DNA of 47,277 nucleotides, filler included, from Jimgerdemannia flammicorona (GCA_003990765.1; 2 parts of 2 records of this genome joined end to end with filler, not necessarily neighbours in it), one strand, 5' to 3'; numbered from the whole stretch's first letter, positions 5,385 to 46,098 are shown. Translations and numbers: made by a program. The notes: a model not told the origin generated them from the letters alone.

Positions 5385-5429
<45 letters not shown>

Positions 5430-8549: not shown

Positions 8550-8587
<38 letters not shown>

Positions 8588-10787: not shown

Positions 10788-10840
<53 letters not shown>

Positions 10841-21358: not shown

Positions 21359-23031
21359 ATGGGGAAAAAGAAGACGAAGACGAAGGTCATCCGTCCTTGG
21401 TGCTGGTACTGTGAACGAGACTTTGAAGACGACAAGGTTCTTGTAGCACACCAAAAGGTACTGCACCTACACTAGTGACCTTGGAAGTTTGCGACTGTTT
21501 GTTTATCCACCATCAACCATTGATCCCTGCATCATAACCATTGTTAATAATATTCAGGCCAAGCATTTCAAATGCAGCCATTGCGGTAAAAAACTGACAA
21601 CGGCTGGCGGCATGGTTGTTCACGTCGCGCAAGTACACAAGGAGACTGTGAACAAGTATGTGTCAATATGCTCATGTCAACGAGTACACCACTCTTCATC
21701 GTCTTTGCTGATAATTCAATGCAACTGCTGCGCGATCCTTGGTGTAGAGTCCCCAACGCTCTTCCAGGCCGCGAATCCTGCGAGATCGAGATCTTTGGCA
21801 TGGAAGGCATCCCCGAGGAAGATCAAATTGCTCATCAGGCCGCATTGGATGCCAAGGACAATCCACCTAGCAAGCGCCAAAAGTTTGACACCGGAGGCAA
21901 CTTGACCGAGCTGACCCCCGAGCAGATCCAAGCCCAACTGGCTCAACATCAAGCATTGGCGCAGGCCACGCCGCAGTCTTTTCCTCCGGCCCCATATGGC
22001 GCTCCGGCCCCTGCTGGAGGGCCCGTCCCACCCGCTGGCGCTGCATACTCTGGATATTTTCCGCCACCCCGACCTGGTGCGCCGTCTGCAGCGCCTGCAC
22101 CTGCCCCATTTCCTGGTCAGTACAGCCAATTCTATCAGCCAAGGCCACCTGCGGGAACTGCTGCAACCCAGCCCTATAGACCTCCGCCCGGTCAACCCTA
22201 CCAGCAGCCGCCATTCCCACCGCAGCAACCATACGGATATCGTTCAGGGTAACTAGTACTTACAATAGTAACCACGTCGGAATAGATAAAGAGATGCTTT
22301 TGAATCGATATTGATGGACTAACCATCATATCGTATCGACAGGATGCAACCTGCTCCATATCCCGCACCCGGTGGCCCGCAACAATGGGCCCCTCGTCCC
22401 GGCGTGTCTCCCCCAGGACAATCGCCCTATTCTACTGGGTCTGTTGCGCCATTCCGACCACCGTCATCTCAAGCTCCTCCCACAGGGCCGGCCTATGGCG
22501 CACCTCCTACTTCGCAACCACCGTACTCTTCTCCACAGGCTCCGCAGCAGCCTCCCTACGGCCCAGCCCAAGGATATCCATATTCTCAAGCGTCGCCGAC
22601 CGCGCCTGCGTCCTCGACACCCACCTCACAACCGCCATTCGCTCCGTATTCTTCAGGACCGTATCTGGCTCCTTCAAGCACGCCATTGTTGATCGGGACT
22701 GCCGCGGCACCAACCAATGGTGCTGTTCCGCAAGGAACAGAAACTACTGCGCAAATTTCTCCAACCGAGAAGAAAAAGGCGGTAGAAACTTTGCTGATTT
22801 ACGACGATAACGAGGTCTCTCCGGTAGGTTTTTGAATGTTGATGTTATAACCTCCCCTCCCCCTCCCCCAAACAAAAAAAAAAAAAAAAAAAAAGTTATT
22901 TTTATTTTATTTTTTTTATTTTGAGCTGGTCCTCGTCTTATTCACATTTCTGTTTGTTTATGTAGGAGGAGAAGCGGGCGGCTCTGGATAAATACCGATA
23001 CAACAGAGATTCGGTCAAGCAGCAGGTGTAG
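21359..23031 (+). CDS. ZNF207: BUB3-interacting zinc finger protein BuGZ/ZNF207 homolog (5 exons: 21359-21457, 21558-21655, 21748-22248, 22343-22823, 22966-23031; 414 aa)
   Basis: MGKKK...[50 protein letters not shown]...[20 protein letters not shown], then a Pro/Gln-rich middle and a C-terminal GLEBS-like [17 protein letters not shown]. Intact 1245-nt spliced frame. Confidence 0.93.
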
Positions 23032-23592: not shown

Positions 23593-23692
23593 NNNNNNNN
23601 NNNNNNNNNNNNNNNNNNNNNNNNNNNNNNNNNNNNTTAATTAATTAANNNNNNNNNNNNNNNNNNNNNNNNNNNNNNNNNNNNNNNNNNNN
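23593..23692. other. Artificial contig linker N44-TTAATTAATTAA-N44 (stops in all six frames)
   Basis: Symmetric 100-nt spacer. Base composition changes abruptly across it. Confidence 0.95.
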
Positions 23693-24676
23693 AAGACCAC
23701 CACCACAGCACCAGAGACTGCCGAGATCTTTCTCAACCAAGTATTCAGGCTACATGGCATGCCAAGCACCATTGTATCTGACTGAGATACCAAGTTCACA
23801 AGCAACTTCTGGAAGGCATTTTTCTCTCTCCATGGAACCAAGCTGAAGTTCTCTACTGCCTACCACCCTCAGACTGATGGTCAAACCGAGCGAACCAACA
23901 GGACCCTCAAACAGATGCTTAGCATCTTCTGCTGTTACAAGCAAAATGACTGGGACAAGTACCTAGCCCATGCTGAGTTTGCCTATAACAACAGTCAGCA
24001 AACCTCCACAAAGAAGACTCCATTCTTTCTGAACCATGGTCAACACCCCAGGACCCCAAGTACTACCGCGAAATCAGCAGTCCCAGCAGCCCAAGATCTG
24101 GCTGAGACCATTTCTGACCTCACGCGAATGACAAGAGATGCTCTCATAGAAGCACAAGACTACCAGACCAAGTACGTGAACTTGAAGCGAAGAGAAGCCT
24201 CCTACAATATTGGTGACAAGGTCATGCTTAGAACAGACCACCTTCACCCAAACACCCTGGCACAACAACTAGCCAAGAAACTCCGTACTAGAAGAATTGG
24301 ACCATACAAGATTGTGGAAAAAATCAGCGAAGTCAACTACAAGTTGCAACTTCCCAACAATATTCGAGTACACCCAGTATTCCATATCAGCCAATTGGTG
24401 GACTACCATGAGAACCCATTCCTCGAGCGTACAGTTCCACCACCACCCCCAATTAGGATCAATGATCATGAGGAATTCGAAATTGAGGAAGTACTTGACC
24501 ACAAGGTCCGAAAATATCCCAAAGCAGTCAAGCGCCTTTTCCTGATCAAGTGGAAGGGTTACCCCACCCATGATGCCACCTGGGAAAAAGAAGAAGTCCT
24601 GAAAAATGCACGCGAAGCCCTCCAGGACTACATGGAAACACTCACCCCCCAGCAAAGGAAGGAACTACAGCTCTAA
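23693..24676 (+). pseudogene. Integrase C-half + chromodomain of element A (one in-frame TGA)
   Basis: HGMPSTIVSD*DTKFTSNFW...STAYHPQTDGQTERTN, a GPY motif (IGPYKI), and chromodomain EEFEIEEVLDHK...FLIKWKGYPTHDATWE. Confidence 0.92.
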
Positions 24677-25325
24677 GCATAGGAGCACATAGCAAGCAGA
24701 AGGATACCACATATTTTTATCTGGAAACATATAATATGTACCGAACATTGCGAAAAAAGGGAACACTATGGATAACCAACAAGAAGATACCCGAGCAACA
24801 GAACAATCTAGTACAGTATAGCAAAACACATTTGAACAACCCTATTTCATGCCATCTGTGTCATCTCCGCTGGATGATGACGGACGCTTCATGTGAAACT
24901 TAGGAAAGCTGACAATGTCGAAACCAGTCTAAGTCCATCCACGTGACAGATATTGTTACTAAAGAATTGCCTCGGATTACAAGAAAGTCTATTTCCGAGA
25001 GGTTCGAACCCCCAGCCGCGACAATGGGAGCCCTCGCCTTAGACAAGGATGGCCAGTCCTCGCAAATGCACCAACCAGACAAAAAAAAAAGTGGACCAAG
25101 ACCTGTTAACCCCATGTAACCACAGACAGGTGACGAGATCTTTGAAATCAGAATTTCCTCATGTGACCAGCACATGCTTCGCTTATAGCACAGGTCATGC
25201 ATTTTGCCAGAAAGCGTGACCAAAGGAAGATCACATCAGACAGGTGAACAAGTATAAATACCCAAGACAAGAATACCCCGCAACTCTCATCCCCCTTTCC
25301 TCACAAAAGAAAAGACAAGACAAGA

Positions 25326-26132
25326 ATGCCTGCCACCCGCTGCCAAACTGCCTGCTGTAGCCGGCCCCTCCCAAGCCAGATTGACCGCCTCTTTGGACAC
25401 ATCCAAGTTGCTATCCAAGGAAGGAACTGCCGCTCAGAGGCCCTTGACCTCTCCCACCAGGACCTAGGACGATATGTCCTTGACCGCCGTGAACTCATTG
25501 AAAGGGCCTACCTTGCTACCAGCCACCTAGAAATCTGACATGAATATGAGATTGGCCACCAACTTCTCCAACGTGCAAAGGACCTGCCCATGGACCAAGT
25601 CTCCAACTGGACTCACTTAGACAGGCATGAGCAAAGACTTGCCAAGAAGGTCCATCAAATCATGTGCCATGCACCTTTTGCGATCCCCAACCTCAACTAC
25701 ATACAACTGAAGGACTTCCAGAACCTCTCTTTCCCTGAGGTCGACGAACTAGAGATCAAGGTAGCCCAAGAAGCCGACTCCTGGATCACCCCCAAGTCTA
25801 CTGACTGCGAACCCTACTGGAGCCCCCTCCTGAATGACAACCCTGACCAATGGCTCCAAGGCCTCTCTGACCTCTTTGAAGGACCACCCATCTGAATGGA
25901 TATTCCCAGGCATGAAGATCAAGAGCCCTACTTGGATGGCCCCAACCGCATCAGATGGAGAACCCCAACACCAGCACAAAACCCAGTACGAGAACCATTT
26001 GCAGACCTCATTGACTTCTCCATCCTGGACATCGAGCCATCAGTAACCACCCCCCCTGCCCCTGAGCAAGATTCCCCACCTTTCTCTCCCCTGGTTCTCA
26101 ATTTCTCAATCAACGAGAACATTGATTTCTAA
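25326..26132 (+). pseudogene. Accessory ORF of element A (~268 aa, two TGA stops probably from CGA)
   Basis: Track ORFs 25326-25538, 25590-25895 and 25896-26132 are one frame broken by two TGAs. TATAAATA lies at ~25253, and the stop abuts the PPT. Confidence 0.75.
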
Positions 26133-26143
26133 GGAGGGAAGGA

Positions 26144-26915
26144 TGTAATAGAATGATGAACGATGAGCGATCACGTGACCCGGCGAGCGATGACATCACC
26201 ATATGATTGAAGCGCGACATATGAATAGCGAGTACGAACGATGCGAAACGACGCGGAAAACGATATCCAGCTTACCCCCAACAATCGGCGCCGCAGTCAG
26301 CGCCGCAGCAACAGTTGCCACAGTTGCTGATCATTGCCTAGTAATTGAGGTCCTGATCACAAAATTGTTTTTGCCAAAAACCACCTGACAAAGGTCGCGA
26401 TCACAAACCTCATTATAGTTACCAAATTAGTCACTCATACTTAGTCAGAAATCGCAGACCAACTTGTATAAATACCCCCCAGTTTTCCATCCGAAATAAA
26501 CCAGTTTTAGTTCAGTCCTTGATACAAGAATCAAGTCCCCCCCACACACTCACATTCCCCTGAGTCTTAGTAATGACATCTAAGTGACTCTAGTGTTTCT
26601 GACTAAACTCCAGAAGCCTAGCTAACTTCTGCCAGAACTGAGACCAGTATATAAATCCCCAAAGACTTAAGTAAACCCATTGAACCTGAATTCCAAGGTG
26701 AATTCAGTCTGTGCACAGCAAAGAACAAGACCCTCAAAATAGGGCACAAGAGAAAGACCTTTGAAAGATAAGGCACTGCTGCTACAACTACTTTAAGCGA
26801 GCGCTTCCTCAACTGAAGGCTTCTTGGTACACATTGTGTACTAAGTCCCTAAGTAATAGTCCACTTCCCTAATTATCCTAAGGATAAGAGAGGGATAGAA
26901 GTGAGAGTTATTACA
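26144..26915 (+). repeat. 3' LTR of element A (772 bp)
   Basis: Starts right after the PPT. Perfect 7-bp terminal inverted repeat TGTAATA/TATTACA, TATAAATA at ~26467 and AATAAA at ~26495. Confidence 0.9.
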
Positions 26916-28168
26916 AAGGGTCTGTTTACCTGTACAAACTCTGTATACCATACAGACTCTGTACACTGTACAGGTCCTGTATACTATACAGACTCTGTAT
27001 ACCTACCATAAGTAGCAGATCTATAGTTAGCCACATAGTAACCAGATAGCAACCAACTTGTATAAATTACCCCAGAGACAAGAGTGAATAAACCTCAGTC
27101 TGAAATACAAATACCAAAAAAGCCTCTAAAGATTGAGCATTGGTCCCCTTTCCACTCCAGTCCACTTTCCAATACAAAGCTTGAAGATTTGCTGCCAAGT
27201 TCAAGAAAGAACTTCACTGCCTTTTGAAGAACCCGCTGCTTAAGGAATAAGTTATGCTATTGGTATGCTTGCCAGATAAGCCTGAAGAACCCCAGTTTCT
27301 GTATTCCCAGAGAGTCTTGCCACAAGCCAGTCCCTGATGCAACTTTGCAGTAGAGCCAGTCTATTGATGCAACTCCACGCAAATGAAGCCAGTCTCGACG
27401 TAACTTGCCAAGAACCCAAGTTATTATTCCCAGAAGAGCCTGATTTGAAAGAATCTGCACCATCCGAGTTAATTCTCAGTTAAGCCGCCATTATTAAGAA
27501 GTCTGTTGATTCAGGAAGAATCTGTATCATCTGCTGTTTCCAAGTTATCTGCTGTATTCTCAGTTGAAGCCAAAACCACAATATCCAAGTTATTTGCCAT
27601 TCCCAGTGAGCCTGAGAAGAATCTGCCACCAGTACTATTTCCAGTAATAAGAACCCATGCTGTACAATTCCCAGTGAGCCAAATCGAGTTGTCCACCAAA
27701 TCTGCATAAGGAATACTGCCAAGATCATCCTGCATAAGGAAACCGCCATGCTACATAGAGATCATCATGCTACACAGAGATCATCATGCAGAGATCACCA
27801 TCACTCAAGAAAGAGAACTGCTAAATTGCCAGACTATCATACAGAGATTATTGCACTATACAAGAGACCATCCCACCAGAATTCGCATACTTTTGGAGAT
27901 TGCCTCACTATACAAAATTGTGCCATTCCTAGTTGACCTAAGAAGGAAATCCATTCATATACACAAATCACCACTACACTCAAAGAACTGTCCCAAAAAG
28001 GAAACTACTCACACAGTATCCAGATCTTGACTATTATACCACTAAACACCAAGGACCTCAGGAATCTTAGAACATTTTATTGCTTTTTGACAAAGTAACT
28101 GGAGGCTCAAGCCAAACTACATCAACCCCCAACCTTGTAATTTGCCTCCATTGAGCTGGCATGTTACA
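26916..28168 (+). repeat. 5' LTR of element B (first ~139 bp displaced by element A; full LTR ~1.39 kb)
   Basis: Matches the 3' LTR from 35896. Ends ...TGTTACA, immediately before the PBS. Confidence 0.85.
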
Positions 28169-28170
28169 TT

Positions 28171-28189
28171 TGGGGGTTCAACTGAGAAT
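28171..28189 (+). promoter_or_regulatory. Primer-binding site of element B (TGGGGGTTCAACTGAGAAT; tRNA identity uncertain, Pro- or Gln-like)
   Basis: TGG begins 2 nt after the LTR-terminal CA and resembles the complement of a tRNA 3' end. Confidence 0.6.
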
Positions 28190-28249
28190 ATTTCAAAATC
28201 AATATGACTTTTCAACTTACAAGAACCCACAGTCAAACTGGATATATTT

Positions 28250-31200
28250 GATATAACACCAACCTCTGCCACTACAGGAGAATTAGTCATCACTAGCATT
28301 TAGACAGGAAGAGAAGTAATTACCTCAAGACTTGCCAACTACCCAGCATCAGAAGGATCCCAACCAGAAGCAAGAGGCAGTACAGCCCGAAATCCCCAAC
28401 CAGATCAACCAGATCAATCAGACAATACAGGCAGCCCTGCTAGAGATTTTGGAGAACTTGCACAAGAACTAGAAGACCTTATTACACAGACCCAATACTT
28501 TACAGCCAGACACCCTACATCAGTCCCACCAATCTCACCAATAGAACCCCTACCACAACCTCTTGCAGAATCAGAAGTAGCTCCTACAAGAATACCTAGG
28601 CCTATTCTACTCCACCCAAGGATCAGAACACCATCTTCAAGATATCCAAGCACTCTTGTCTCTAGTGACAGTTCAGAAAGTGAATCAGAATCAGAATTTG
28701 AACCTGAACCAGAATCAGAAGAAAGTAATAATGAAATGGCCACCTCATTGCCAACCTTTGCAGGATACCCAGAGGAAGACCCCAAAGAATTTCTTGATGG
28801 AATTGAAGGAATTGCAGCCTTGAGAAATCTCTCAGATGAAAGAAAAATCGCCATTTATAAAGCTCAGCTCAGATAACCAGCCAGAGGAATTTTCCATCAG
28901 ACAGCAAACAACCAAGATTCAGAACTAGTAAGACAGATACAAGCAGTAATATCTGATGAGCTGAAATATGAAGCCATGGTCCACTGGCTCATTGAAAAAT
29001 ATGCAGGAAATGAAACCCACCACAAGGCTCAGGAATCCATCATAGAAATGAAGATGAATCTTGGAGAATCACCCAGAGCCTTCTTTACCAGAATCCAGAA
29101 GAGAATGCATTCTGCCAGGTTCAATGCCACCAACCAAGACATTATAGGTCCAATGACCTTCATGAATGGAATTCCCCCGAATATTGCCCAGCATGTCTGT
29201 ACCCTAGGCATCAGAAGGTCTGAAGAGCAAGTAGATATAGCCCAAGGATTCTTTGATGTCAGGCAAGGAACTACCTAGAGTGATTATGATAAGAAGGAAG
29301 ATAAAGAAGATATCCTGGTCAAAGCCCTGCAAGGACTTCTTCAAGGACAAGAAAGATCTGAAGAAAGAAGGCCAGCTAAGGAAGGAAAGAAGGACAGAAG
29401 TGAAATTCAAGACCTTAGCTCCAAGTTAGACCAATTGGTTGGACAGATTGAAAAACTCACCACATGTGAAAATCAGGACTACCAAAACAACAGAGGGAAC
29501 CCACCACAGAGGAGCCAAGGTTATCCACCAAGAGATAATAGGAATTACTAGCAAGAAGAAAGAAGGTACCCTGTCTGAGACAGAGCCCAAGTCCAATGCT
29601 TCCACTGTGGACAATTTGGACACTATGCCACTGAATGTGACAATAAAAGAAGTGACCAAAGGGACTCAGAACCACCAAACTGAAGGAATGACACTCAGTA
29701 CAAGAAGACTGAAGCCCATCCTGTTGAAGATTTCGAAGAAGCAAGTAACAGTGAAGACTACAGTGACCTGGACTTGTACCCCACTAGGGTTACAACCTGG
29801 AAAACAGTCTATCCAGCAGAGAAAAGAAAGAGACCCATAGAAAGACCATCCAGGAACATCAGCAGAAGAATTATCCAAGAAGAGGATGAAGAATATGAGG
29901 AGGAACAAGTAGAAACACCTCCCCAAACCCCCTCACCTTTTGTCTCCGAGACAAATGAGTTGCTACCAGAAGATGAAGAAATGGAACAAGAGGAACAGGA
30001 ATCTGCTGCTCCAAAGCCTAAGAAGAAGTACACTCCAAAGACCATGCCTAGAGATATTTACAATGAAGCCTGGCAGAAGATTCAAGAAGCCAAGATGGAA
30101 GTCCCTCTTCTACAGTTCTTGCAACTGACACCAGCTGGAGTCCAAAACAAATTGCTGAGAACCACTAGGTCTAGCACTGGCTGAGTTCCAATCCCACAGC
30201 AAGAATGAGCTCCTATCCTTGTTCAAGCAGCTGAAAGACATGTCAGCACCTACCTATATGAAGATATTGGAGGACAAAAAGCGAAAATCCTCATAGACAC
30301 AGGAGCAGCTGTCTGTGTTATTGCCAAACGATTCTTGGACACCCTCCAATGGCCCATTGATGGACCATTGAACCTCAGCATCATAGTAGCAGATGGAGCC
30401 CAAACTCAACCCCTTGGAGAAGTATGAAATATCACCATCTCTCTTGGACACATTTAGTTCTCCATCTCCAAAGCTGTTGTCACCAAAGCTGTTACCTATG
30501 ACATGATTCTTGGCACCAACTGGATGAAGGAAATGAATGCAGTTGTTGACATTGGCCAACAAGTACTCAAGTTTGACTACTAAGGTAAGAAGTACAGAGT
30601 TAAGGTAACTAGTTATGAGCAATCAAAGAAGAAGAAAAAGGTCACTATTCAGGAAAAATATGCCAGCAGCAAAGAGTCTACTACAGAAGAAGAAGAATCT
30701 GAAGATGGAAATGATCCCAGACTTAATCCCCAAATCAATCTGGTGGATAACAGACCAGAAGATAATGTGTGGGTCAAGAACACCATCCCTATCACTATTG
30801 GAGCTATTGCGGAAGAAGCCAAAGGATGCTCTACCTGCCTCAAGAGACACAAATGTCCTGAGCACTCCTCCAAGATCATGGAAACAAGGAAATCACCTGG
30901 CACAGTCTGCCCAGAATGCAGAAGGAAGAAGAAGAAATATAGACATGTTCCAGAAATACCTGCAATCAAAGCTGCAGAAGTATAAGCAATTTGGGGTCAA
31001 GAATCATCCAAGGAAGAAGAAACTTCTGACCAAGAAGTTCCTGAACAAGAAGCATCTGATGAAGAAGAGGTCCCCGAACTCATTCCCTAGGATGACCCTT
31101 GCTGGACACTACCTGAAGACAATGACCCATGGAATACAGAAGAAGGACCCAGTATAATCACCATTATCACCAAGAAAGAAACCCACCAAGAGAAAGCTTT

Positions 31201-34144
31201 TCAGCTAGGAAGATGTTCATACCAAATGGTCTTCCATTCCCCCTGAGACTACTGCTATCAGTGTCATCTGTTGGACCAATAAGAAAGACAGAGACCCCAG
31301 AGACCAGAATTCCCAACTACTCTTGTACAGTCTACCACCTTTCAAGAAGTCACCACAAGGTTACAAAGTCGATTTAGGGGACAAGGCTTCTTCACCTGAA
31401 CAGAAATATACCCCTTGTCTACTCTTCCCCCAACCTATGATCAAGATGGGTACCAATTCCCAAGGCAATAAGAGATAAATAGCCGGGAACATCATTTCTG
31501 AACAATGAGATATTGCAACCATGGGAGACACCCTGATTGCTGAGACTGTAGATATCAGAAGATTCACCTCAGTCATGATATTGCAGTGCACACCTTGAAG
31601 AAAGGAGATAACCAAAGCCAGATTCAAAAAAGTCAGATTCGAAAAAGCCAGACCAAGAAGCCCAGAAAAAGAATTCTCAAGATCTATAATTTGGGAGAAG
31701 ACATCCTAGCTCTCATCAGACATGCAACTCGCCAAGGATGGGCAGAAGATACTACCAACTTCATGGAAGCCCTCGACCCCACAGAAAGGAGGGAATCAAT
31801 TACCTCCAAGACCCCTCTACTGGAGCCAGATGGCCACACCTCAACCTTAGAGCTTGGAGGCTTTCCGCTAGTGGAGCTTCAGCCTTAGGAAAGCCTGAAC
31901 TCAGCAAGGACATTGCCCAGTATGCCCTGCTGCACCCCAAGGCCAAACCCCTGACCAAAGCCCACTCAGAGGATGTAGGATATGACCTTCACAATCTGAA
32001 GGATAATCTATCAAGCCTGGAAAAACCTTTATGGTCAGAACTGGATTAGCCATGCAGCCACCCCAAGGAGCTTATATTCAACTGATCTCAAGGTCCAGAC
32101 TTGCCAGACAAGGGATAACTATAGAAGGAGGAACCATTGACCCTGGATATACAGGCGAAATCAAGGTTATCCTACACAACTGCAGTGCAGAATAGCACCG
32201 AATCATTAGAGGACAGAAGATTGCCCAAGCAGTCTTCATGAAGGTCAAGACCCCACAGTTACAGGAAGTCTCTGAACTAACTGAAGGAACAAGACAAGCC
32301 AAGGGATTTGGAAGTTCAGACAGGAAGGAGGTATATCTCCTTCAAGTTAACCACCTTAAGAAGAATGTTCCCCAGCAAGTATACCTGCAACCAGTCAGAC
32401 TGCACAAGAATCTCATTCTGGAATCTGGAGAACAAACTACCTTCAAAATCTTTGCACCACCCAACCCCAGAAACCTTTTCTTTGAACCTAAAGAAGATAT
32501 CCCACACCTGGACATAGAGGGATACACATTCTCTGATAAGATGAATCCAGTACACTCCTAAGCAACCAACCAAAGTTAGGAGACCATCATCTTGCCAAAA
32601 GGAACCATTATAGGATATCTGGTGCCTTTTCTCAACCAAACTCATAGGGAAGTTTATGAACTAAACCTATCAGGAAATGGCAAAAGGTCCCAGAAGAAAG
32701 GAAAGGCCTCTCTGCGACCCAGGAGACAGTGAAGCCTTCCACTAACATTGGAGAAGAATTGACACCTCAACAACAATAACAACTAGTAGAACTTCTCAAC
32801 AAATATCAAGATATCTTCATCACTGATTATGGCAACCTGCCATACAATCCATCATATCACTATAGCATAAATACAGGAAATGCAACACTCATCTGGCAGA
32901 AACCCTATAGAATACCCCATCACTTGAAAACATTCGAAAAAGAGCACATCTAAGAACTCTTAGACAATGGAGTTATCTGACCCTCTACTACCCCCTGGGC
33001 CAGCCCTATACTTATTGTACCAAAGAAAGGAGGATGAAGACTCTGCATGGATTACAGGAAACTCAATTCAGTCACCAAAAAGGATGCCTATCCTCTGCCC
33101 AGGATCGATGACCTTTTGGATTAGCTATAAGATACCAGATACTTCAGCAGTATGGACCTCTCCACAGGATTTCATGAGATCTCCATGGACCCCAAAGACA
33201 TTCAAAAGACAGCCTTCCTTGCTCTAGGAAAACTGTTTGAATATCTCTAAATGCCCTTTGGACTTTGCAATGCACCCCCCACTTTTCAGAGAATGATGAA
33301 TTTGGTCTATGCCCCCCTGATTCACCACTGCCTGATTATATACATGGATGATTCCAACATCTATTCAGCAAATTTCGAAGAATACCTGCACCATATAGAG
33401 GAATTCTTCAAGCTCACTTGCAAAAACCACTTGAGACTGAATGCAAAGAAATGCTACTTTGGGAAACAGAAACTTGAATTCCTCGGATTCATGGTTTCAA
33501 AAGAAGGAACTCATGCAGACCCAAAGAAAATCAAGAAGATCAACAATTGGCCAGTACCCAAGACTCCAAAAGAAACACTATCATTTCTGATACTAGTATC
33601 CTACTACAGAAGATTCATCAAAGATTTTGCCCAAATCGCTGCCCCAATCCGAATCCTTCTCAAGAAAGGAGTGCCATTCAAATAGACAGAATCACAGGAA
33701 AAAGCCTTCAGAGAACTCAAGAACCACATAACTACAGCACCAATCCTTGTGTGCCCCAATCTACAGAAGCCATTCATCTTATATACAGATGCTTCTAAAG
33801 ATGGCCTCAGGGCAGTACTGTCCCAAGAAGGACCTGATCAACAGCACCATATGATAGCCTATGTAAGCAGGGCTACCAACCAGCAGCAGATGAACTATGG
33901 TAGCACCAAACTGGAATGCCTTGCAGTCATATGAGCAGTTACCCTGTTCAAGCATTACCTTATCAGAAAAAGGTTCACCCTGATCACAGACTATGTAGCC
34001 CTCAAATGGCTATTCAACTGCAAGGAACCTGCTGGAATCCTAGCCTGCTGGATCCTTATCCTTCAGGATTACAAAATCACTATTATTCACAAAGCAGAGA
34101 AAGCCTACAACAATGTTGATATACTTTTCCGCCAGCCCCAATGA
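28250..34144 (+). pseudogene. Decayed gag-pol of element B (Gag, CCHC knuckle, protease, dUTPase, RT, RNase H); start approximate
   Basis: LPTFAGYPEEDPKEFL (Gag); CFHCGQFGHYATEC (~29597); ILIDTGAA (~30290); DAYPLPRIDD, MPFGLCNAPPTFQ and YMDD (RT); LYTDAS (RNase H). Many stops and some frameshifts. Confidence 0.9.
31921..32321 (+). pseudogene. dUTPase domain in element B (between protease and RT)
   Basis: All five trimeric dUTPase motifs are recognisable: VGYDL, SRSRLA, GTIDPGYTGEI, KIAQ, RQAKGFGSS. Confidence 0.9.
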
Positions 34145-35205
34145 ACCAGAAGAAGGGTGTCCCAAGGAACCACACCCTAAAAAAAGCTCCTAAGACCATC
34201 AAGAAACAAGAAAATCTCATCTGACAAGAACATCAGAAAGCCCACCAAGGACAGACATACATAGAAGACAAGATTTGAAAACAATATCAACATTGGCCCC
34301 ACCTCAGAACCCAAGTCCAAGACATTATTCAGAAATGTGACATCTGCCAGAAGTATCAAGGAAAGAAGAACTATCAAGCCCCTCTGCAACCAATTCCTCC
34401 ACCCACTCACATCTTTCAAAGATGGAGAGCAGATGTAATTGGACCTCTACCAGTTATACCAAGAAGAAACAAATATATTCTTGTATTTGTGAAACATCTG
34501 ACCAAGTGGCCTGAGGCTTTTCCAATGGAAATCACAGATGCCTTAACCATTGTAGGCCTCCTCCATAGACTCACACTCAGATATGGACCCCCAGAAGAAC
34601 TCATCTCTGACCAAGGCACAGAATTCATCAACAATATAATCACAAGTTATGCTTGAATTCACAAGATCCACCTCAAAAGGACCACATCATACCACCCTCA
34701 GACCAATGGCATGATAGAGAGAATGAACCAGACCATCAAGAAAGGACATGCCCAAGTCAATCCTACTAATTGGGACCTCTGCTTACCTGAGATCTTATGG
34801 AAAATTCAGAACACCCCTGCCATATCCACCAAACAAAAGCCATTCAAAATGATGTTTGCCAAGAGAACCAGAACTGACCATAAGAATCTCAGAGACCTCC
34901 TCAAGAAGGCAGAACAGTTATGTAATCAAGCCCAAGGACAGATTATCAAAGCCCAGGAAAGACAAAAGAAGTACTATAACCAAAAACAGAAGGATCAGAA
35001 GATCAAGATTGGAGATCAAGTCCTAGTTTGGAGAAGTATGATTGAGACAAACTTTGCCACTAAACTAGAACCGAAATGGGAAGGACCTTATCTTGTATAC
35101 AATATCAGAGGAACCAGTATCTATTTAAGAAGCATGGATAGACAAACCCTGAGAACACCAGTACATATCAATCACCTCAAACTATATTTCCCCTCTACAC
35201 CATGA
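34141..35205 (+). pseudogene. Integrase of element B as a separate ORF
   Basis: From ATG 34141 in one frame: H-x3-H...CDIC zinc finger, WRADVIGPLP, LISDQGTEF, YHPQTNGMIER and KWEGPY. Two internal TGAs near the N-terminus. Confidence 0.88.
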
Positions 35206-35717
35206 GCCAAAGGATTGATCAGCACCTCCAGACATTGGTCCTCAGCTCCTTCCAAGCCCTACCAGTCCCTCTACCCCAATTCGGCCAAGCCAATGGAAGC
35301 CCCCTTCAAAGGATCCAAGTTCACCAGGAAAATCTTACCTTGGCCAGATGCCTACTACAAGTCCACCAACTGCAGGCCTATTATGCAATTGGTGAACAAT
35401 TGCAGAACCTCCCAGCCCCAGAACAGACCTATATCAGGAATACCATAGGTCTGACCAGAAGAGACACTACTGCTACAGACAGACTATACACTATTTATAA
35501 ATGAAATGTCACAGCCCTGATACAAGCACAATTCTCCCTGAATGATATTCAAGGAATGAACCCTGTTACCTATTTGAGCATCATCAACTCTGTCGAAATT
35601 CTATTCCCCAAAGAAGAAGAAGAGCCCATAGAATGGAGTGACCCCAGTATAGACAATGAAGATGATGGAACAGGTATAGATACAGAAGTAGCCTATGCTT
35701 ACTGGGATAATGACTGA
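35202..35717 (+). pseudogene. Accessory ORF of element B (~171 aa; may extend to TGA at 35754-35756)
   Basis: ATG overlaps the integrase stop (ATGA). One internal TGA at 35502-35504, then an acidic tail EEEEPIEWSDPSIDNEDD. Confidence 0.75.
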
Positions 35718-35756
35718 AGAATAGTCTGGGACAGACTACCCTTCAGTAAGGGCTGA

Positions 35757-36696
35757 TGTGACAAACCAAAACATACCACCCAAATTATATCTTAACCAGA
35801 TGATGTGAACAATTAGGCAAGATGATGTGAACACACAGTATAGTAACCAGCAACCATTGCTGCGGAAAACTGTATAAATAGCCAGACATACTAGAAAGGG
35901 TCTGTTTACCTGTACAGACTCTGTACACCATACAGACTCTGTACACTGTATAGGTTCTGTACACCATACAGACTCTGTATACCTACCATAAGTAGCAGAT
36001 CTATAGTTAGCCACATAGTAACCAGATAGTAACCAACTTGTATAAATTACCCTAGAGACAAGAGTGAATAAACCTCGGTCTGAAATACAAACACCAAAGA
36101 AGCCTCTAAAGATTGAGCATTAGTCCCCTTTCCACTCCAGTCTACTTTCTGATACAAAGCTTGAAGATTTGTCACCAAGTTCAAGGAAGAACTTCACCAC
36201 CTTTTGAAGAATCTGCTGCTTAAGGAATAAGCTGCACTATTGGTATGCTTGCCAGATAAGCCTGAAGAACCCCAGTTTCTGCATTCCCAGAGAGCCTTGC
36301 CACAAGCCAGTCCCTGATGCAACTTTGCAGTAGAGCCAGTCTATTGATGCAACTCCATACAAATGAAGCCAATCTCAATGTAACTTGCCAAGAACCTGAG
36401 TTATTATTCCCAGAAGAGCCCAATTTGAAAGAATCTGCACCATCTGAGTTAATTCTCAGTTAAGCCACTGTTATTAAGAAGTTCACCGATTCAGGAAGAA
36501 TCTATATCATCTACCATTTCCAAGTTATCCACTGTATTCCCAGTTGAAGCTGAAACTGTGACATCCAAGTTATTCACCATTCCCAGTAAGCCCAAGAAGA
36601 ATCTGCTGTCAGTACTATTTCCAGTAATAAGAACCCATGCTGTACAATTCTCAGTGAGCCAAATTGAGTTGTCTGCCAAATCTGCATAGGGAATAC
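35757..36696 (+). repeat. 3' LTR of element B (interrupted by element C at 36696/36697)
   Basis: Begins TGTGACA after a short purine-rich tract. Co-linear with the 5' LTR up to ...GGAATAC. Confidence 0.88.
35913..35984 (+). repeat. 4 x 18-bp tandem repeat (TACAGACTCTGTACACCA) in LTR B U3; second copy at 26933-27004
   Basis: Units start at 35913, 35931, 35949 and 35967. Confidence 0.85.
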
Positions 36697-38761
36697 TGTA
36701 AGCACACAACCTTCAAGCCACCAAAATCACACATCACCCTCTGAACAAGCCACTGAAATCACATGCGACCTCTGAACAAATCTGGAAATTACCTGCTTGA
36801 TCACGAAGCTGAGTCAAACCAAAGTCACAGTGTACAAAGCTGAGTCAATACAAAGTCACAGAATACAAGATTCATATAAACAGAATCTTACCAATCAGGA
36901 CCAAATGCATATATACCAAGCACCGAGATGTATCGAAACAGAGAACCAAAACAAACAACAACCACAACTCTTAACATACAAACATGACTACTGAGATCTA
37001 CAACTGTATCTGCATTGACATTTGGAATGTTATTATCAACTGAGCCACACCCCCTTTGCCCCTTATAAATATCCATAGCCTAGCACCCCTCTACTTCATG
37101 GAAGCCCGATGGAATGCCCTGAACATGCTTAATGAGGCCCACCAAATCAGACAAATCTCAAGCTACTATCAGATCAGCCGCCTCCTGAAAGATATGGTTA
37201 AACACCACTATGATACAGACATTACCCAGATATCTCAACACCAAAAGCTCATCACTCACAAATACAGAGAACTCTTCTACGAGTACAGCACCTTTATTCT
37301 CCACCTCTGAGTTACTACCAGTGAAATGGTTGCTACTCTGTCCTATGGCCAAATCGATGACATGATACAAGAACTCAACCACAAGTATCTCGAGTACATC
37401 CAGACCACAGACAGAACCTTTCCGCACCCCAATAACCACATCCTGCAAATGCCCCAAGTTGGATACATTATGAAGGACATCTACAATATAATCCGGTTCA
37501 ATGATGATGAAGCAGAAGACAATGATCTCTCTGACACTGACATGACCCCAAGCCAAGGATCCCTGCCAATACTAATTACACCACCAACCTTGCCAATGAA
37601 CTTACAATAGTTCATAACCACATATGAGACTTATTGGGACAATGATCACTAGTATGAATACTGACCTGCATTCACCCCCGATTACTTCAACTATAATGAA
37701 GAGACTGGAGAACACAACCTATACCTTCAGACAACCCTTGAGATTGAACCAACCACTCCACTATCCGAGTATGAGCAACATGAACCACAGCTACCAGCAT
37801 ACTATAACCCTACAACTTATAGTGCTGTAACCTACAGAAGGTACACAGACAGTGAATCTGATGAAAGTGAAGACAATGCACCACTCCTTCACCCCCCAAC
37901 ACCTTACCCAGTATATGAGACTGACGACACCATCTTATGGGATGGAGATAAAGTTCCAATGTATTATTACCTCAGCAAACAAGGAGAAGTAATCTGCAAA
38001 CCACTCTTCCTAGATGACTACTTCATTAGAGATGATGCAATTGATAGTGATGTCATCAAAGACTACCCAGACAGCATCTAAACCTAGAAATAGGTTAGCA
38101 GTCATAGTATAGTTAGATTAGCCTTGTATAATGTAACTGTGAACTAACTCAGCAGTCAGATGATCTCTTGATATGTCAGATCACTCTTATACTATATGAC
38201 TGCATTCCGACTCAGCAAGGCACTTAGTGCTACATCTATATTTAGTATAGTCCAGATAGCCCCTCACTAGTATAAATACTCCCTCCCCTAGACCTCAGAA
38301 TCTCAGACCTAAACAATCTGAACACAACTCCTGAGCACTTCCCCACAATATCCCTTCACACAACTACTCCTAGTATAGTAATATTATGAATAGCGAATAA
38401 ATCTATTTAATAACCCACAACCCACTCTTAAGTAAATCTGCTCCCCATTAGGTCCCACTTCTAACCCCATCATAAAAATTCCTAATTGGGTATTGTCTGT
38501 AGTGATATGCCAATTCAACTAAGCTGGTCTTAGTTTCTTGAACTTCCTGAAATATGGAAAATCCTGAACATCCAGAACTAGTCCAAAAAAAGGACTCTGA
38601 TTGAAACATCAACCCAAACTTGAAATCAATAAGTATAGAGGATGTACTCTATATGAAATTGATCTTGACCATAAGAAAACAGTCTCCCAGAACATCCAGA
38701 ACTTCTAGAAAAACCCCTCCAGAACTACATAATGGTTACTCTAAAAAGCAACCCTCTTACA
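36697..38761 (+). repeat. 5' LTR of element C (right end inferred)
   Basis: TGTAAG...CTTACA inverted termini, followed by TGGTAGTAGTG (38765; resembles a decayed tRNA-iMet PBS). TATAAATA at ~38271. The end cannot be confirmed because the 3' LTR is truncated. Confidence 0.7.
37065..38081 (+). pseudogene. Accessory ORF inside the LTR of element C (~338 aa); partial second copy 45647-46098
   Basis: A single frame with scattered stops. The two LTR copies complement each other: ATA 37065 vs ATG 45647, and TGA 37308 vs CGA in the 3' copy. Confidence 0.8.
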
Positions 38762-38899
38762 ACTTGGTAGTAGTGATTTACAATCCAATTCTGTTTCAAG
38801 ATACTTCTTCACTCAGCTATAAAACCCCTCTGTGAATTCCTACAAGTTAGTATCAAGCCCAACCTCTGAACTAGAATTTATTCTGAACCATCTGACAAT

Positions 38900-41800
38900 C
38901 TGAAGAGAATTGAACCTGACGTACAAGGACAATTTGACCTCTACACCTGCAATAAGTGGGACAAACTTCATTTAAAGAAAGAAGTACTCCAGTTAAACCA
39001 GCAAATAGGTGAAACCCTATTCACCGAACTCCTTGCACTACACCCAGCAAGTCAATATGAAGAAGGTCTTATAGAAGTCTTCTTTACTCTTCTCAACAAG
39101 AGTTTTGTTAGCTCCACAAATTTGAGTAATCTAGGATAACCAGCAGCAGTCTTTCTAGCCTTAGTCCCTCATGAAGCCCAAACCTCTGTAGCCAAGTGGC
39201 TCAACTCTACCAACTTTCACCATACCAGGACCAAGACTGCACTATACTACCAATTCCAGAACAGCAAGACCCACCATATCCTTAAAGAAGAAGCAAGAGA
39301 AACTCTTCATCAACTACCTGACCCTGAACCTGAAGTAGGCTCTGCTATAGCTCTACCTAAATCTGAAACCAATACCAAACCTGAACTTGACTTTGAATTA
39401 AGTCCATCTGAAATCAGATATATAACTGATTCTGTCTACTTTGATGCTGAGCAAACTCAATTACATGGAGATCAAACTGAAGAGGAGGAGGAGTATCTCA
39501 GTGAATTCGATCTCAGATATATCAGCAAAGGAGAAGCACCTCCATCAGGACAGAATATACCTACACAGTAACAAATAGCTATCTATCAAGCTCTTACTCC
39601 AGACCCACAACTACTACTCCAACAACTTACATAGACCTAAAGAACACTCTCACACTCTGCACCAGTACCTCAAGTAGTACTAGTAACACCACTACCAGTA
39701 GTCCAACTGCCTTCAGTAAACAACATGGTGAACCAACAGATTCTAGACCTCATAGCCCAAGTAGCAATAATGGCAGCAACCATTACTGCCCTAGCCGAAC
39801 AGACCTGACCTACCAAAAATCTGAGCCTACCTACCTTCAATGGTACTGCATAAGAAGTTCAAAGCTTCATTAGTATAGTAGATACCAACTTCGAAGCCAA
39901 TCAATGGACCAATGAGCAAGTTACTGACTGCATTCTGACAAACAATCAAGACCACACCCTGGAACAACTCTTTGCTACCACTACAGCCTATGTCTGCCAA
40001 GTTGTTACATTCTTCTGAGGATCTGCTGAAGAATGGTAGTGAACTCTTCCTGAAAAACCTCTCACATAGGACACCTGACCTGCAGTAGTTGTGCAGAATG
40101 CAGCAAATAACGCCCCAGGATATGGAGCCCATCCTGCAGCCCCTGGTCAAACAACTCATGATTGCTCAATACCACAGTGAAACTATGATTGCTGAATCCT
40201 GAGTAAAACTCTGCAACCTCAAATTCGATGTATATGGCAAAGAAGAATTCAAAACCTTCTGTACAAAACTCAAGTCACTCCTGAACACTGTTGACCTAGG
40301 ATATATCGCCAATGATGAAGCATGAAATGGTACAAGAGCAGACCATTTATTCGATGCCCTGCCTGAATGGCTTACTAGAAAAATCCAAGAACAAGGCCAC
40401 CCAGTTGGTTGTGATCACCAACAATGATGTCTGGCAAGAATCAAGACTATGGTCAAGCAAATCCTAACAGCTGGACCAATTCAGCTCTGAAGACAATTTA
40501 ACAATAAGGAAAAGACTTGGACCAAGAAAGAAGAACCCAAGCATGAAGTATCCCAAGCTCCCTCCACATCCACCTCTTGGACACCTAGAAATCATGAACC
40601 TGCCCAGCTGAGTATCTTCAAGAAACTCACCAAAGGAGAAAGAAATGAACTTCAAAGAAGTGGAGCATGCTTCTATTGCTGAAAGATAGGACACATGGCC
40701 AGTGTCTACCCTAACCAAAAACTCTGAACAGCAACATGAGCAACTGTTACCACTCTGCACCACCTCAACAACCTGATCACCAGAATACTAGACTTTGTCA
40801 AGTTAAGGCAAACTGCCAAGGCTCCAACCAAAGGAAGTCAAAAAGCAGCCAGATATGATCTATATGCAGCTGAAGAAGCTACAGTTTCCAACTGAGAAGT
40901 CAAGCAAGTCTATACAGGAATTAGTATCCAAATTCCTGAGGGATATGTTGGAAGAATATGCTGTTACAGTAGCCTAGCATTGAAGGGACTCTTAGTAGAA
41001 GGAGGAGTCATTGATAAGGATTATACAGGTGAAATTATTGTCCTCATCTGAAACCATAGTTGGATATCCTTCAAGATCCCTATAGGTTTCTGCATCACTC
41101 AGATCTTATTTAAAAAAATTGAGTCAACCCTGATAGTCAAGGAAGTCCCTGAACTACTATCTACCATCTGAGGATCCAAAGTATTTGGCTCATCAAACAA
41201 GGCCCAGCCCAACCTACTATGAGCAAAGAAGAACAATTCTACAAGAAGATCAAAGACAGATATGTACCAAGTGGCTGATGCCCTCATGGTATTGGAATGT
41301 ACTCTTCCCGAATGATTGATGATTGCTTCTCTTGTATCAATGAACTGGCACAAAGAAGAATCAACAGAAGGAAAGCTCCTACAACTGATATCACCACCAT
41401 TGGATCAGACAAACTACTTACACTTAAAGCTTTTGTCAACTGAGCACCTGTCAAGATTATGATAGACAGTAGTGCCTCAGACAACTTCATTAATAAAGAA
41501 ACAGCCAATAGACTCAAGGTCTTCACCTCTCCAGTACAACAAACTCAAGCAGTAGCCACAGCTGATGGAACCTCATATGTTATTAGCAAGGAAGTCCACA
41601 ACCTACCCTTCCGAATTGGTGACTATTGAGTACATATTACCTTCCAAATTGTACCACTTTCTGACAATGAGATCATCCTTAGAACCCTATGGTTGAAACA
41701 AGAGAACCCTATGATTGATTGGGTAAACTATTCTCTGACCATCAAGAAAGGATGCCATAACTTCAAACTACAAGGCAAAAAGGATACACTCAATTCTAGT

Positions 41801-44800
41801 GACCTTGGACCAAAGATCACCTACATCAACAAGCTACAACTCAAGAAATTGGCCAAGAAATGCCCTCTTTTTGCCATCTCCATCCGCCCATCCAAAGGAG
41901 AACTCAAAAACTCTGGAGAAGACTTTTCCAAAGTTGACAGCTATATCAGACCACTACTCCAGAAATTCCAAGACATATTCCCAAAGAAGCTCCCAAAGGG
42001 CCTACCTCCTAAACAAGCAGTAGACCATGCAATCAAGACTATTCCAGATGCCAAGCCAGCCTTCAAGTCAATCTACCACATGTCTCCAAGAGAAATCAAT
42101 TTACTCAAGATAGATATCAATGAACTTCTAGAACAAGGATTCATCAGGCCCAGTGTATCACCCTACAGTGCACCAGTCCTCTTTGTTGTAAAGAAAGAAG
42201 AAGACCTGAGAATGTGTATTGATTACTGTGACCTCAATGAACAGACCATCAAGAACTGTTGCCCACTACCGAGGATTGATGAAATATTTGATAGACTCAC
42301 CAACCTGCAATTTATGAGCTCTTTTGATCTGTGAAATGGTTATTGACAAATTGCTATGAAAGAAAAAGACATCTACAAGACAGCTTTCTGAACTCACTAT
42401 GGATACTTTGAGTTCCTGGTTATGCCCTTTGGCTTAACTAATGCTCCAGTAACCTTCCAGATACTGATGAATACCATTCTGCATCCATACCTAGACAAAT
42501 TTGTTGTTGTCTACATTGATGACATCCTAGTCTTCAGCAAAACCCTGGAGGAACATCTCGAACACCTTGAACTAGTACTACTGAAACTCTGAGAAAACCA
42601 ACTCTTTGCAAAACTCAGCAAGTGTGAATTCCTCCTGAAAGAAATCCAATTTCTTGGATACATTGTCATACCAAATGGAATTAAAGTAAACCCCAGCAAA
42701 ATCTCTGCAATCAAAGATTAGTCTGGACCCAAGAAGCTGAAAGACCTCCAGTCATTTCTGAGATTAGTAAACTATTATAGCAATTTGTTGCCAACTTTGC
42801 TAAAATCGCTACCGCCCTCACCCAAATGACTAAGCATAACAAGAAACAAGAACAACCCTGGACCATGAAACAAGAGAAAGACTTCAACAATCTTGTAAAT
42901 TGGGGACCCAAGCAAGATACTGCCTTTCAAGCACTAAAAGATGCCCTGATAACCACTCTAGTACTTCAAGCGGCAAATCCTGCCCTACCATATGAAGTTA
43001 CTACTGATACCTCTGACCTAGCTCTTGGAGCAGTGCTCATACAAGAAGGACACCTTGTGGCCTATCACTCCCGCAAGTTCAATGATGCTGAAATTAACTA
43101 TATAACTCATGAGAAGGAAATGCTAGCCATCATAGACACTCTGATCAAATGGTGACCATACCTAGAAGGAGCACACTTCACTGTATTGACTGATCACAAG
43201 TTACTAGTCAACATCAAGATACAGGCTACCCTCTCTTGAAAGCAAGCCAGATGGATGAAAGTCCTCACTAACTTTGACTATGAAATCCAGTACTGCCCTG
43301 GCAAGGAAAACATTATCACCAATGCAATCTCCAGGTCACCAATCGAAGAAGTTATCCAAACCCTCACCTTGGTTATAAACTCCATCATGGAACAAATTAT
43401 TGTAGCATGTACTGATGATAAGGAAGCTCAAGTACTCTGAGAAATCTTGGACAGTGATGATGCCAATAAGCATATACAGTATCATCAATACCAACTGAAG
43501 GACAATGCTATCTACTATAAGGACAGACTGTATGTCTCAAACAACTGAGACCTCTGAAGGACTATCCTATTCAAATGTCATGATGCCCCTACAGCTGGAC
43601 ATTTAGGATTTGATAAATGTTATGAAGTTATCTCCTGAAACTTCTATTGGCCCCACATGGCAGACCAGCTCAAGATCTATATCACTTCCTGTGATGCCTG
43701 CCAATGGAATAAGTCCTCAACACTAGCAAAATCTAGCCTACTCCACTCTATTCCAGTACCATCTGCTAATTGAGAACAAATATCTATAGACTTCATTGTA
43801 CAACTACCCCAAACCAAGAATGGAAAAGATGCAATTGTTGTCTTTGTAGACTATCTCAGCAAACAAGCTCACTTTGTACTAACTACCACTACTGCAACAG
43901 CACCAGATATAACTACACTCTTGTTTGACAACATTTTCTGCTATGTATCATGGTCTCCCTAAGATCATTGTTAGTGACCAAGACCCAAAATTCACCAGCC
44001 ATTTTTGGAAAGCCCTCCATACATACCTTAGAATGAAACTTGCATTATCTACAGCTTTTTACCCTGAAACTGATGGCCAAACCAAAAGAATGAACCAAAC
44101 TCTGGAATAAATGCTAAGGAACTATGTTTCCTACAGACAAGATGATTGGCATGAACACCTCACCACAGTTGAGTTTGCCTATAATAACAGCAAGCAAGCC
44201 TCCCTTAGAATGACTCCATTCTTCGCCAACACTGGACAAAACCCAAACACCTCTTTGATACTCATCTGAACTACTGAAGAACCCTCTACAGTCAAAGCTG
44301 TTGAAGAATTCCTGCTCAGAATGTGTAATCTAAGCCAGATCGCAATTGAGAATTTATCATGAGCTTAAGAACAACAGTCACAGTATGTTAACCAATACTG
44401 TCGAGAAGAAACCTTTGATATTGGAGAAAAAGTTCTACTAGACATCCAAGAATACCGAGTAGACAACCTCAAGCACAGACTATCTACAAAGCTGAACAGC
44501 AAGTTCATTGGACCATTTGAAGTTATTGTACAAGTCTCTTCAACCTCCTACAAATTGGTGTTGCTAGATACCATTAAGATTCACCCAGTCTTTAATGTCC
44601 AACATCTCAAGCAATACAATGACAATGATGATGAACTATTCTCAAACCAAACCATGGAACCACCTGCATCTGTCATTATTAATGACCAGGAAGAATACAA
44701 AGATTGAACAGATTCTCAACAAACATGGCCACAAGAACCACCCAGAATACCTTGTTAAATAGAAAGGTTACTTGATCCATAATGCAACCTGGGAACCCAA

Positions 44801-45278: not shown

Positions 45279-46098
45279 TGTAAGTGCACAACCTTCAAGC
45301 CACCAAAATCACACATCACCCTCTGAACAAGTCACTGATATCACATGTGACCTCTGAACAAATCTGGAAATCACCTGCTCAATCACAAAGCTGAGTCAAA
45401 CTGAAGTCACAGTGCACAAAGCTGAGTCAATACAAAGTCACAGAACACAAGATTCACATAAACAGAATCTTACCAATCAGGACCAAATGCATATATACTG
45501 AGCACTGAGACATGTCAAAACAGAGAACCAAAACAAACAATAACTATAACTCTTAATACACAAACATGACCACTGAGATCTACAACTGTATCTGCACTGA
45601 CATTTGGAATACCATTGTCAACTAAGTCACACCCCCTTTGTCCCTCATGAATATCCATAGCCTAGCACCCCTCTACTTCGTGGAAGCCTGATGGAATGTC
45701 CTGAACATGCTTAATGAGGCCCACCAGATTGGACAAATCTCAAGCTACTACCAGATCAGCTGCCTCCTGGAAGATATGGTCAAACACCACCATGATACAG
45801 ATATTACCCAGATGTCTCAACACTAAAAGCTCATCACTCGCAAACACAGAGAACTCTTCTATGAGTACAGCACCTTTATTCCCCACCTCCGAGTTACTAC
45901 CAGTGAAATGGTTGCTATCCTGTCCTATGATCAAATTGACAACATGATACAAGAACTCAACCACAAGTACCTCGAGTACATCCAGACTACAGACAGAACC
46001 TTCCTACACCCCGATGACCACATCCTGCAAATGCCCCAAGTTGGATATGCTATAAAGGACATCTATGATATAATCCAGTTTGATGATGATAAAGCAGA
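45279..46098 (+). repeat. 3' LTR of element C, truncated or interrupted at 46098
   Basis: Starts TGTAAG after the PPT. Homology to the 5' LTR stops abruptly after AAGCAGA. Confidence 0.9.

Follow-up and report, generated by a model that had tools for sequence, protein, structure and literature searches.

An uncharacterised accessory protein family encoded after pol in three divergent Ty3/Gypsy lineages in Jimgerdemannia flammicorona DNA

The stretch of DNA analysed in this study, called the window throughout, comprises 47,277 nt of Jimgerdemannia flammicorona (GCA_003990765.1), in which parts of two records of the genome, not necessarily neighbours in it, are joined end to end with filler. 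The region from about 23.7 to 46.1 kb of the window is a stack of Ty3/Gypsy elements, all on the sense strand, and three of these, named here elements A, B and C, carry an extra open reading frame (ORF). An initial annotation of the window had noticed such ORFs beyond gag-pol at three places, and we confirmed all of them; they lie after pol and are broken by stops in every case. By profile comparison, ORFs A, B and C proved to be decayed copies of one protein family, which is wider than the window.

The carriers were classified with a Pfam scan, which covered 87 of the 109 stop-free ORF pieces of the window. The order protease, reverse transcriptase (RT), RNase H and integrase, as in Ty3/Gypsy elements, was recovered in B and C, and an integrase with a chromodomain in A. 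Further features of such elements were a pair of long terminal repeats (LTRs) in B, polypurine tracts and LTR ends in A and C, and a primer-binding-site-like sequence in C. The RT of B and C is 37% identical, and the integrase identity is 41% for A and C, 29% for A and B, and 24% for B and C. Judged by these domains, A, B and C are three divergent Ty3/Gypsy lineages, in keeping with the earlier suggestion of a conserved, uncharacterised accessory family carried by divergent Gypsy elements.

For the homology searches, each stop in the ORFs was written as X. Intact relatives of each of ORFs A, B and C were found in public environmental data at 56–83% identity, annotated at most as "hypothetical protein", and therefore the frame has been kept open elsewhere. 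The initial annotation had aligned the three proteins by eye, and direct comparison did not bear this out with significance. BLASTP gave an E-value of 9e-4 for B and C, 0.23 for A and C, and 4.5 for A and B; comparison of the shallow family alignments with hhalign gave 0.0099, 0.041 and 0.21 for the three pairings; and a hidden Markov model (HMM) built from any single family gave members of the remaining two scores close to that of the best shuffle. Such values are in line with three unrelated ORFs, whose likeness would have arisen by chance among helical, decayed, A-rich frames. The kinship stood when it was approached through more distant members. The joint alignment of the families is collinear, with the start and the motifs P-x-P-L-P, Y-Y-x-I-G-x-x-L, A-x-R-[IV]-Y-x-L-F and P-x-A-[IL] in the same order, and of the 1.84 billion representatives searched with the joint profile, 25 matched at E<=1e-3. 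They comprised 11 members of the A, B and C families, 2 long low-complexity proteins, which were set aside, and 12 distant proteins of 154–286 residues.

An HMM built from these 12 distant proteins alone recovered all 16 members of the A, B and C families, with 29.8–61.1 bits, above each of 2,800 shuffled decoys, and therefore the three belong to one family. Most of the distant proteins also scored above the best shuffle on the A-only profile (10.4–42.8 bits; best shuffle 13.3) and on the B-only profile (6.6–32.0 bits; best shuffle 10.3). C was joined mainly through the distant-member profile, because the C-only profile consists of three near-identical rows. In addition, one alignment yielded confident structural models for two members that are only 19% identical. 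The distant proteins were selected by a profile that itself contained A, B and C, and it counts against the breadth of the family as a Gypsy-borne one that two metagenome scans gave no confirmed locus for the distant members, carriage by Gypsy elements being shown for A, B and C only. Given the E-values obtained over the whole library and the magnitude of the back-scores, a chance origin of the likeness is very unlikely; three unrelated ORFs are an extremely improbable reading, refuted by the distant-member profile unless the 12 distant proteins are artefacts.

The features of the three elements are collected in Table 1.

Table 1. Features of elements A, B and C in the window
Feature	Position	Strand	Details and basis
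Element A pol end (integrase C-terminus, SH3_Tf2-1, chromodomain)	23786..24676	+	Pfam: SH3_Tf2-1 1.3e-19, Chromo 5.5e-13
TATAAATAC, candidate internal promoter, 65 nt upstream of ORF A start	25253..25261	+	9-mer match
ORF A, accessory protein	25326..26132	+	268 codons, 2 stops; family HMM 161.7 bits
Element A polypurine tract GGAGGGAAGGA, then 3' LTR from 26144 (TGTAAT) to 26915 (ATTACA)	26133..26915	+	sequence
Element B 5' LTR	26909..27718	+	810 nt, 90.6% identical to 35889-36698; self-comparison
Element B pol, last stretch (integrase C-terminus)	34657..35205	+	Pfam, ORF map
ORF B, accessory protein	35202..35717	+	171 codons, 1 stop; ends 171 nt before 3' LTR; family HMM 172.1 bits
Element B 3' LTR	35889..36698	+	repeat with 26909-27718
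Promoter-like stretch before ORF C	36697..36983	+	starts TGTAAG; GCTGAGTCAA twice, 31 bp apart (36808, 36839); TATATA at 36909
ORF C, accessory protein	36984..38081	+	365 codons, 5 stops; relatives P0008, P0022
LTR core after ORF C	38082..38761	+	TATAAATAC at 38271; AATAAA near 38393; CTTACA end 38756-38761
Primer-binding-site-like TTGGTAGTAGTGATT, 2 nt after CTTACA	38764..38778	+	best match in a deamination-tolerant scan of 23700-47000
Element C gag-pol	39300..44800	+	CCHC near 40665, dUTPase ~40815-41234, protease 41444, RT 42392, RNase H 42781, integrase and SH3 43913-44704
Second copy of 36697-37516	45279..46098	+	820 nt, 90.2% identical; self-comparison; promoter-like stretch and ORF C codons 1-178 from 45566; family HMM 144.5 bits

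The protein is predicted to be soluble and to consist of a core of about 135 residues, folded into seven helices, and after it a disordered tail that is acidic and aromatic-rich. AlphaFold2 models made from the family alignment reached a mean predicted local distance difference test score (pLDDT) of 82.1 and a predicted template modelling score (pTM) of 0.70 for the member P0001, and 90.0 and 0.82 for P0026. The same seven helices were present in both models, and the disordered tail was present in that of P0001. The tail carries a net negative charge, from -1 to -24, in all 29 alignment rows that have one, and contains many aromatic residues. Hydropathy analysis by Kyte-Doolittle, for which a threshold of about 1.6 is usual for membrane segments, gave a 19-residue maximum of 1.47 over 24 family sequences, so that no membrane segment was found and the protein is therefore not env-like. 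In these respects the earlier description of a helical core with an acidic tail, lacking a transmembrane segment and unlike env, was upheld by models, charge and hydropathy together. The prediction of a P0026 homodimer scored 0.23 against a mark of 0.32.

The C-termini of P0023, P0026, P0033 and P0034, and of ORF A in the window (26115–26129), show a short motif of an aromatic or hydrophobic, an acidic and a hydrophobic residue at the last positions, and members of the B family end in Y-W-D-D-D. This aromatic-x-acidic-hydrophobic ending may be a conserved docking motif.

The searches for known relatives agreed with the view that the family is uncharacterised. None of 20 family proteins came near any Pfam-A cut-off (best E 0.013, 16.1 bits against a cut-off of 28.3), and no Pfam family was assigned to the accessory-ORF pieces of the window. 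Foldseek returned nothing at E<=1e-3 from the PDB or from BFVD, and this includes any fold like an Env fusion protein. An exhaustive structure alignment to 48,161 solved chains gave best Z-scores of 3.9 and 4.0 for the two models and none of at least 5, values that are low even for unmatched models according to the tool's notes. The PDB sequence-profile search gave a single match at E 0.94, and ESM Atlas gave neighbours at chance level only. Capsid chains were absent among the fold matches listed, the family HMM had no match in gag of B or C, and no CCHC motif was present in the family alignments. The modelled core fold is thus without a match in any solved structure searched.

In the three divergent lineages, the accessory gene is found downstream of pol and upstream of the LTR promoter core, as read from the ORF and repeat maps. 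The initial annotation had held that each ORF is expressed in a different way, which, given this shared position, is not supported as worded; C differs only by the probable location of its ORF within a 2,065-bp LTR. In element A, of which the remainder is lost behind N gaps at 23593–23692 (two N runs), ORF A starts 650 nt after the pol end. It is 61% identical to the intact relative P0009, and 55% identical, up to the C-terminal region, to P0015, a cluster mate of P0009. The residue replaced by the first stop in ORF A is W in the intact relative, in place of the R proposed before. A purine tract and the LTR follow directly after ORF A, the LTR termini being perfectly inverted (TGTAAT at 26144, ATTACA at 26910–26915), and past 26916 the contigs of other copies continue with the primer-binding-site-like CTTGGTAGCAGCGGATT.

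In element B, the domains found by Pfam at 30209–35205 are, in order, protease, dUTPase, RT, RNase H and integrase. The ATG of ORF B (35202–35204) overlaps the TGA stop of pol (35203–35205) in an ATGA at 35202–35205, and this suggests re-initiation or a nearby internal start. Seven relatives of ORF B were found at 56–81% identity, four of them full length or longer (171–183 amino acids) and three shorter; in some of them the open frame extends farther upstream, across the integrase end. Canonical TG...CA ends and target-site duplications were not established for element B or for the B–C junction.

The limits of ORF C follow from two relatives. Its N-terminal 128 amino acids are 81% identical to P0008, which the database search had returned at 83% identity, and the alignment places the start at the ATG at 36984; residues 115–365 are 65% identical to P0022 and end at the same last residues, and ORF C therefore runs from 36984 to 38081. 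Of the limits given earlier for this ORF (37065–38081), the end was kept and the start was moved. The protein sequence quoted for it was a mixture of the two window copies that begin at 36984 and 45566.

The LTR of element C needs closer consideration, since the repeat found by self-comparison is 820 bp long, whereas its features point to a longer unit. A purine tract stands directly before the start of the repeat in the second window copy (45265–45278) and, in other copies, ahead of the equivalent of 36697. The TGTAAG that opens the repeat is the exact inverted complement of the CTTACA that ends at 38761. On the other hand, the repeat end at 37516 has no inverted terminus (TGTAAG...AAGCAGA) and no primer-binding-site-like sequence after it, and the frame of ORF C crosses 37516 uninterrupted, both in the window and in P0022. 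Going by these termini, the 820-bp repeat very probably falls short of a complete LTR, and the earlier layout, which had taken it as such and had put the ORF just inside the 5' end, is not favoured. CTTACA, a 2-nt spacer and TTGGTAGTAGTGATT at 38756–38778 indicate that the 5' LTR of C gag-pol ends at 38761. TTGGTAGTAGTGATT has the same layout as the motif that follows A-type LTR ends in other copies, and differs from it by three transitions and one further change.

We slightly favour a layout with a single 2,065-bp LTR at 36697–38761, the whole of ORF C in U3, and a 3' LTR that is broken off at 46098, where the second C copy ends. A less probable but quite conceivable layout has two tandem copies that share an LTR, in the order pol, ORF, LTR as in A. 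The read depth, which rises about 1.4- to 2.6-fold near 38000–38300, weighs against the single long LTR, as it fits an LTR starting after ORF C in a tandem copy better. With either of these layouts, ORF C would come between pol and the LTR promoter core, like ORFs A and B. It has also to be considered that the 820-bp repeat (36697–37516 and 45279–46098) is a whole LTR after all, and that ORF C is a 5' leader gene running from the LTR into the internal region and translated first from the genomic RNA, which would match the claim of a different mode of expression. The repeat does open with TG after a purine tract and does end where the similarity stops, and the gag of Ty1 reportedly starts inside its LTR. 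This layout is quite unlikely, given that its termini are not inverted and no primer-binding-site-like sequence follows 37516, and that the canonical CTTACA, 2-nt spacer and TTGGTAG... lie 1.25 kb downstream, arranged as after A-type LTR ends in other copies. If the single long LTR is the true layout, the gene in U3 would be present twice per element and would persist in solo LTRs, and a shift of the polypurine tract would be a simple route for an accessory gene into an LTR.

Past the break at 46098, TTACA, a 4-nt spacer and TTGGTAGGCGACC at 46126–46147 resemble an LTR end followed by a primer-binding site. From this region to the window end the sequence is GC-rich with the opposite base skew, and another, less decayed element may begin here. 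The DNA similarity of 46099–47277 to the C and B leaders was no better than that of shuffles.

Candidate expression signals were found before ORFs A and C. The 9-mer TATAAATAC occurs 3 times in the 47-kb window, where 0.22 occurrences are expected and 1 of 100 shuffles reached 3; one site lies 65 nt ahead of ORF A, another within LTR A, and the third in the LTR core that follows ORF C. In both C copies, a TATATA stands about 75 nt before the ORF C ATG and is preceded by two GCTGAGTCAA motifs in tandem at a distance of 31 bp. The motif GCTGAGTCAA, whose core we take to be an AP-1/Gcn4-type site, occurs exactly 4 times in the window, always within the tandem 31-bp repeats at 36808–36848 and 45390–45430. 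Taken together, TATAAATAC, the TATATA and the GCTGAGTCAA pair suggest that an internal promoter yields a short transcript reaching to the poly(A) signal of the LTR. The accessory gene is thus likely to have a promoter of its own: in A and C, a TATA-type promoter 65–75 nt before the ATG would drive the brief message for the protein, polyadenylated at the LTR site (AATAAA near 38393 for C), and in B translation would start by re-initiation or at a nearby internal start.

We tentatively propose that the protein acts in trans as a regulator or adaptor of its element, the simplest form of which would be a transactivator like Tas of foamy viruses. Transactivation and anti-silencing had been offered as examples in the initial annotation. 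The helical core would dock on a component of the element, such as the LTR or an element protein, and the acidic-aromatic tail would recruit a host machine, most simply transcription co-activators. A soluble protein with a core and an acidic-aromatic tail, conserved in all three lineages yet evolving faster than pol, placed after pol and probably equipped with its own promoter, fits this role. Several results weigh against it. The TATA-like sites are consensus matches only. None of the public runs listed is recorded as RNA, and the contigs of runs X1 and X2, guessed to be RNA, did not cover ORF A and reached the neighbourhood of ORF B only with LTR-side pieces, which has no bearing on expression. 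The core charge is near neutral (roughly -4 to +3 in most members), and this does not speak for nucleic-acid binding, sequence-specific binding of the LTR or internal promoter included. ParB-type helix-turn-helix domains (SopB, VirB, KorB) aligned to the P0001 model at Z 2.7–3.2 over 74–81 residues with a root-mean-square deviation of 4.5–5.1, but they were absent from the best 50 matches of the better model, P0026, and hhalign of the family against the single sequence of P1 ParB gave E 0.24 over 32 columns (ParB residues 152–184). As this resemblance was seen in the P0001 model only and was not reproduced, the helix-turn-helix is retained as a tentative lead at most.

The near-neutral core and the lack of a reproducible helix-turn-helix relative of the fold would suit a replication or assembly cofactor. 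In that case the core would bind Gag, integrase or element RNA and aid particle assembly, nuclear entry or target choice, while the tail docks on a host transport or chromatin protein. The retention of the gene beside integrase in three lineages and the ending of several members in the aromatic-x-acidic-hydrophobic motif, docking-like by inspection, agree with such a role; neither HMM comparison over the window nor the fold search gave any similarity to capsid, matrix or nucleocapsid, and we regard the cofactor as possible, if somewhat doubtful. A counter-defence factor that blunts host silencing (RNA interference, DNA methylation or repeat-induced mutation) is unlikely. The heavy C>T and G>A decay of the surrounding copies indicates that the host does attack the elements, and the protein evolves faster than pol (12–20% identity between families against 24–41% for pol), as is usual for proteins in conflict with a host. 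Fast evolution is, however, equally usual for any accessory protein, and no similarity to known suppressors was found, nor any GW/WG-type motif in the tails of the alignment of window ORFs and relatives.

The proposed regulator may be compared with Tas (Bel1) of foamy viruses, a transactivator whose gene lies 3' of pol, has an internal promoter, and encodes a folded domain and an acidic C-terminal part from a short 3' co-terminal message. The window gene likewise lies 3' of pol with a candidate internal promoter, its product is predicted to have a folded core and an acidic C-terminal tail, and a short 3' co-terminal message is proposed for it. The acidic, aromatic-rich region is found in all 29 tails as a property of the sequence only. 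In contrast to Tas, the window core is not basic, and no sequence or fold match was found in BFVD or the PDB, so the likeness is one of working and not of membership. As for the position in U3, the sag gene of mouse mammary tumour virus lies there and encodes a membrane protein, whereas nef of human immunodeficiency virus only overlaps U3. ORF C would resemble these if the LTR of C is 36697–38761, a reading with somewhat better than even support, as the whole ORF would then lie in U3 and be doubled with the LTR; in A and B the gene is outside the LTR. It is a more doubtful idea that a divergent, probably fungal set of Gypsy elements runs a retrovirus-like regulatory circuit, in which an internal promoter drives a small trans-activator of unmatched fold, with a transfer of the gene into U3 in one lineage. 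The fungal assignment follows the initial annotation, the soil and root metagenomes among the public data, and the published range of chromoviruses with dUTPase. If so, each solo LTR would be a free-standing unit of promoter and regulator, able to act on other copies or on host genes.

To our knowledge, extra genes are known in LTR retrotransposons, few have been traced as protein families, and outside env almost none has a function. The family described here is conserved across lineages whose polymerases are 24–41% identical, and has a confidently predicted fold, no match among 48,161 chains and no Pfam entry. It provides a defined target (core, tail and candidate promoters) for the question of how complex retrotransposons regulate themselves or handle their hosts.

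In the accessible parts of the literature, we found no description of this protein family; what comes closest is the unnamed "add. ORF, unknown function" drawn for some fungal Gypsy elements in Novikova et al. 2010 (PMC2864245). Those elements resemble the present ones in having an extra frame beside gag/pol, and the fungal chromoviruses treated in that paper include some with a variably placed dUTPase, as is the case in B and C. The likeness is drawn from the figure legend alone, where no sequence family, fold or function is given for the extra ORF. The same source, in the part available, reports dUTPase at varying places in Postia placenta elements, cites earlier dUTPase reports for Phanerochaete and Tuber elements, and describes env-like ORFs in Athila-type plant elements, from which the window protein differs in having no membrane segment. 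The dUTPase placement varies between neighbours in the window as well, the domain lying between protease and RT in B (32007–32558) and before protease in C (~40815–41234). The portion of Muszewska et al. 2011 (PMC3248453) that is accessible does not treat extra ORFs. As described in the available text of PMC8365987, brtn is an antisense extra gene of Boty/BcGypsy1 in Botrytis; by this description alone, it shares with the window ORFs that it is additional to a fungal Gypsy element and has no known function, and unlike them it is antisense, whereas they lie on the sense strand after pol.

The window copies are heavily decayed. Transitions make up 77 of 81 and 81 of 83 differing sites in the two long repeat pairs, and both CpA and CpG contexts are hit. 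At T or A positions of the window, other copies in contigs of public runs mostly carry C or G, and for this reason we consider the window copies to be deaminated and dead. The residues found in intact relatives at the window stop positions are R, Q or W, which fits C>T and G>A decay.

Elements A, B and C follow one another directly, without intervening host DNA (26909–26924, 36692–36700): the ATTACA that ends LTR A (26915) passes directly into the B repeat, and the end of the B repeat directly into the TGTAAG of the C repeat. Target-site duplications were not found at these two junctions. Such an arrangement could stem from insertion targeted to LTR ends, from recombination, or from an artefact of assembly close to the N gaps. 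DNA comparisons of LTR A with the stretch after ORF C, and of two pol–ORF spacers, were no better than shuffles. A contig of public run X1 joins about 30 nt resembling the end of LTR A (26916) to sequence 91% like 38031–38300. Just to the left of the pile, part of a host-like gene lies at 21447–21902; it weakly matches a C2H2 zinc finger (E 0.004, which does not reach the cut-off) and has a GC content above that of the elements. Long simple repeats at 1–38, 5285–5431, 8560–8587 and 10788–10870 match one another on both strands.

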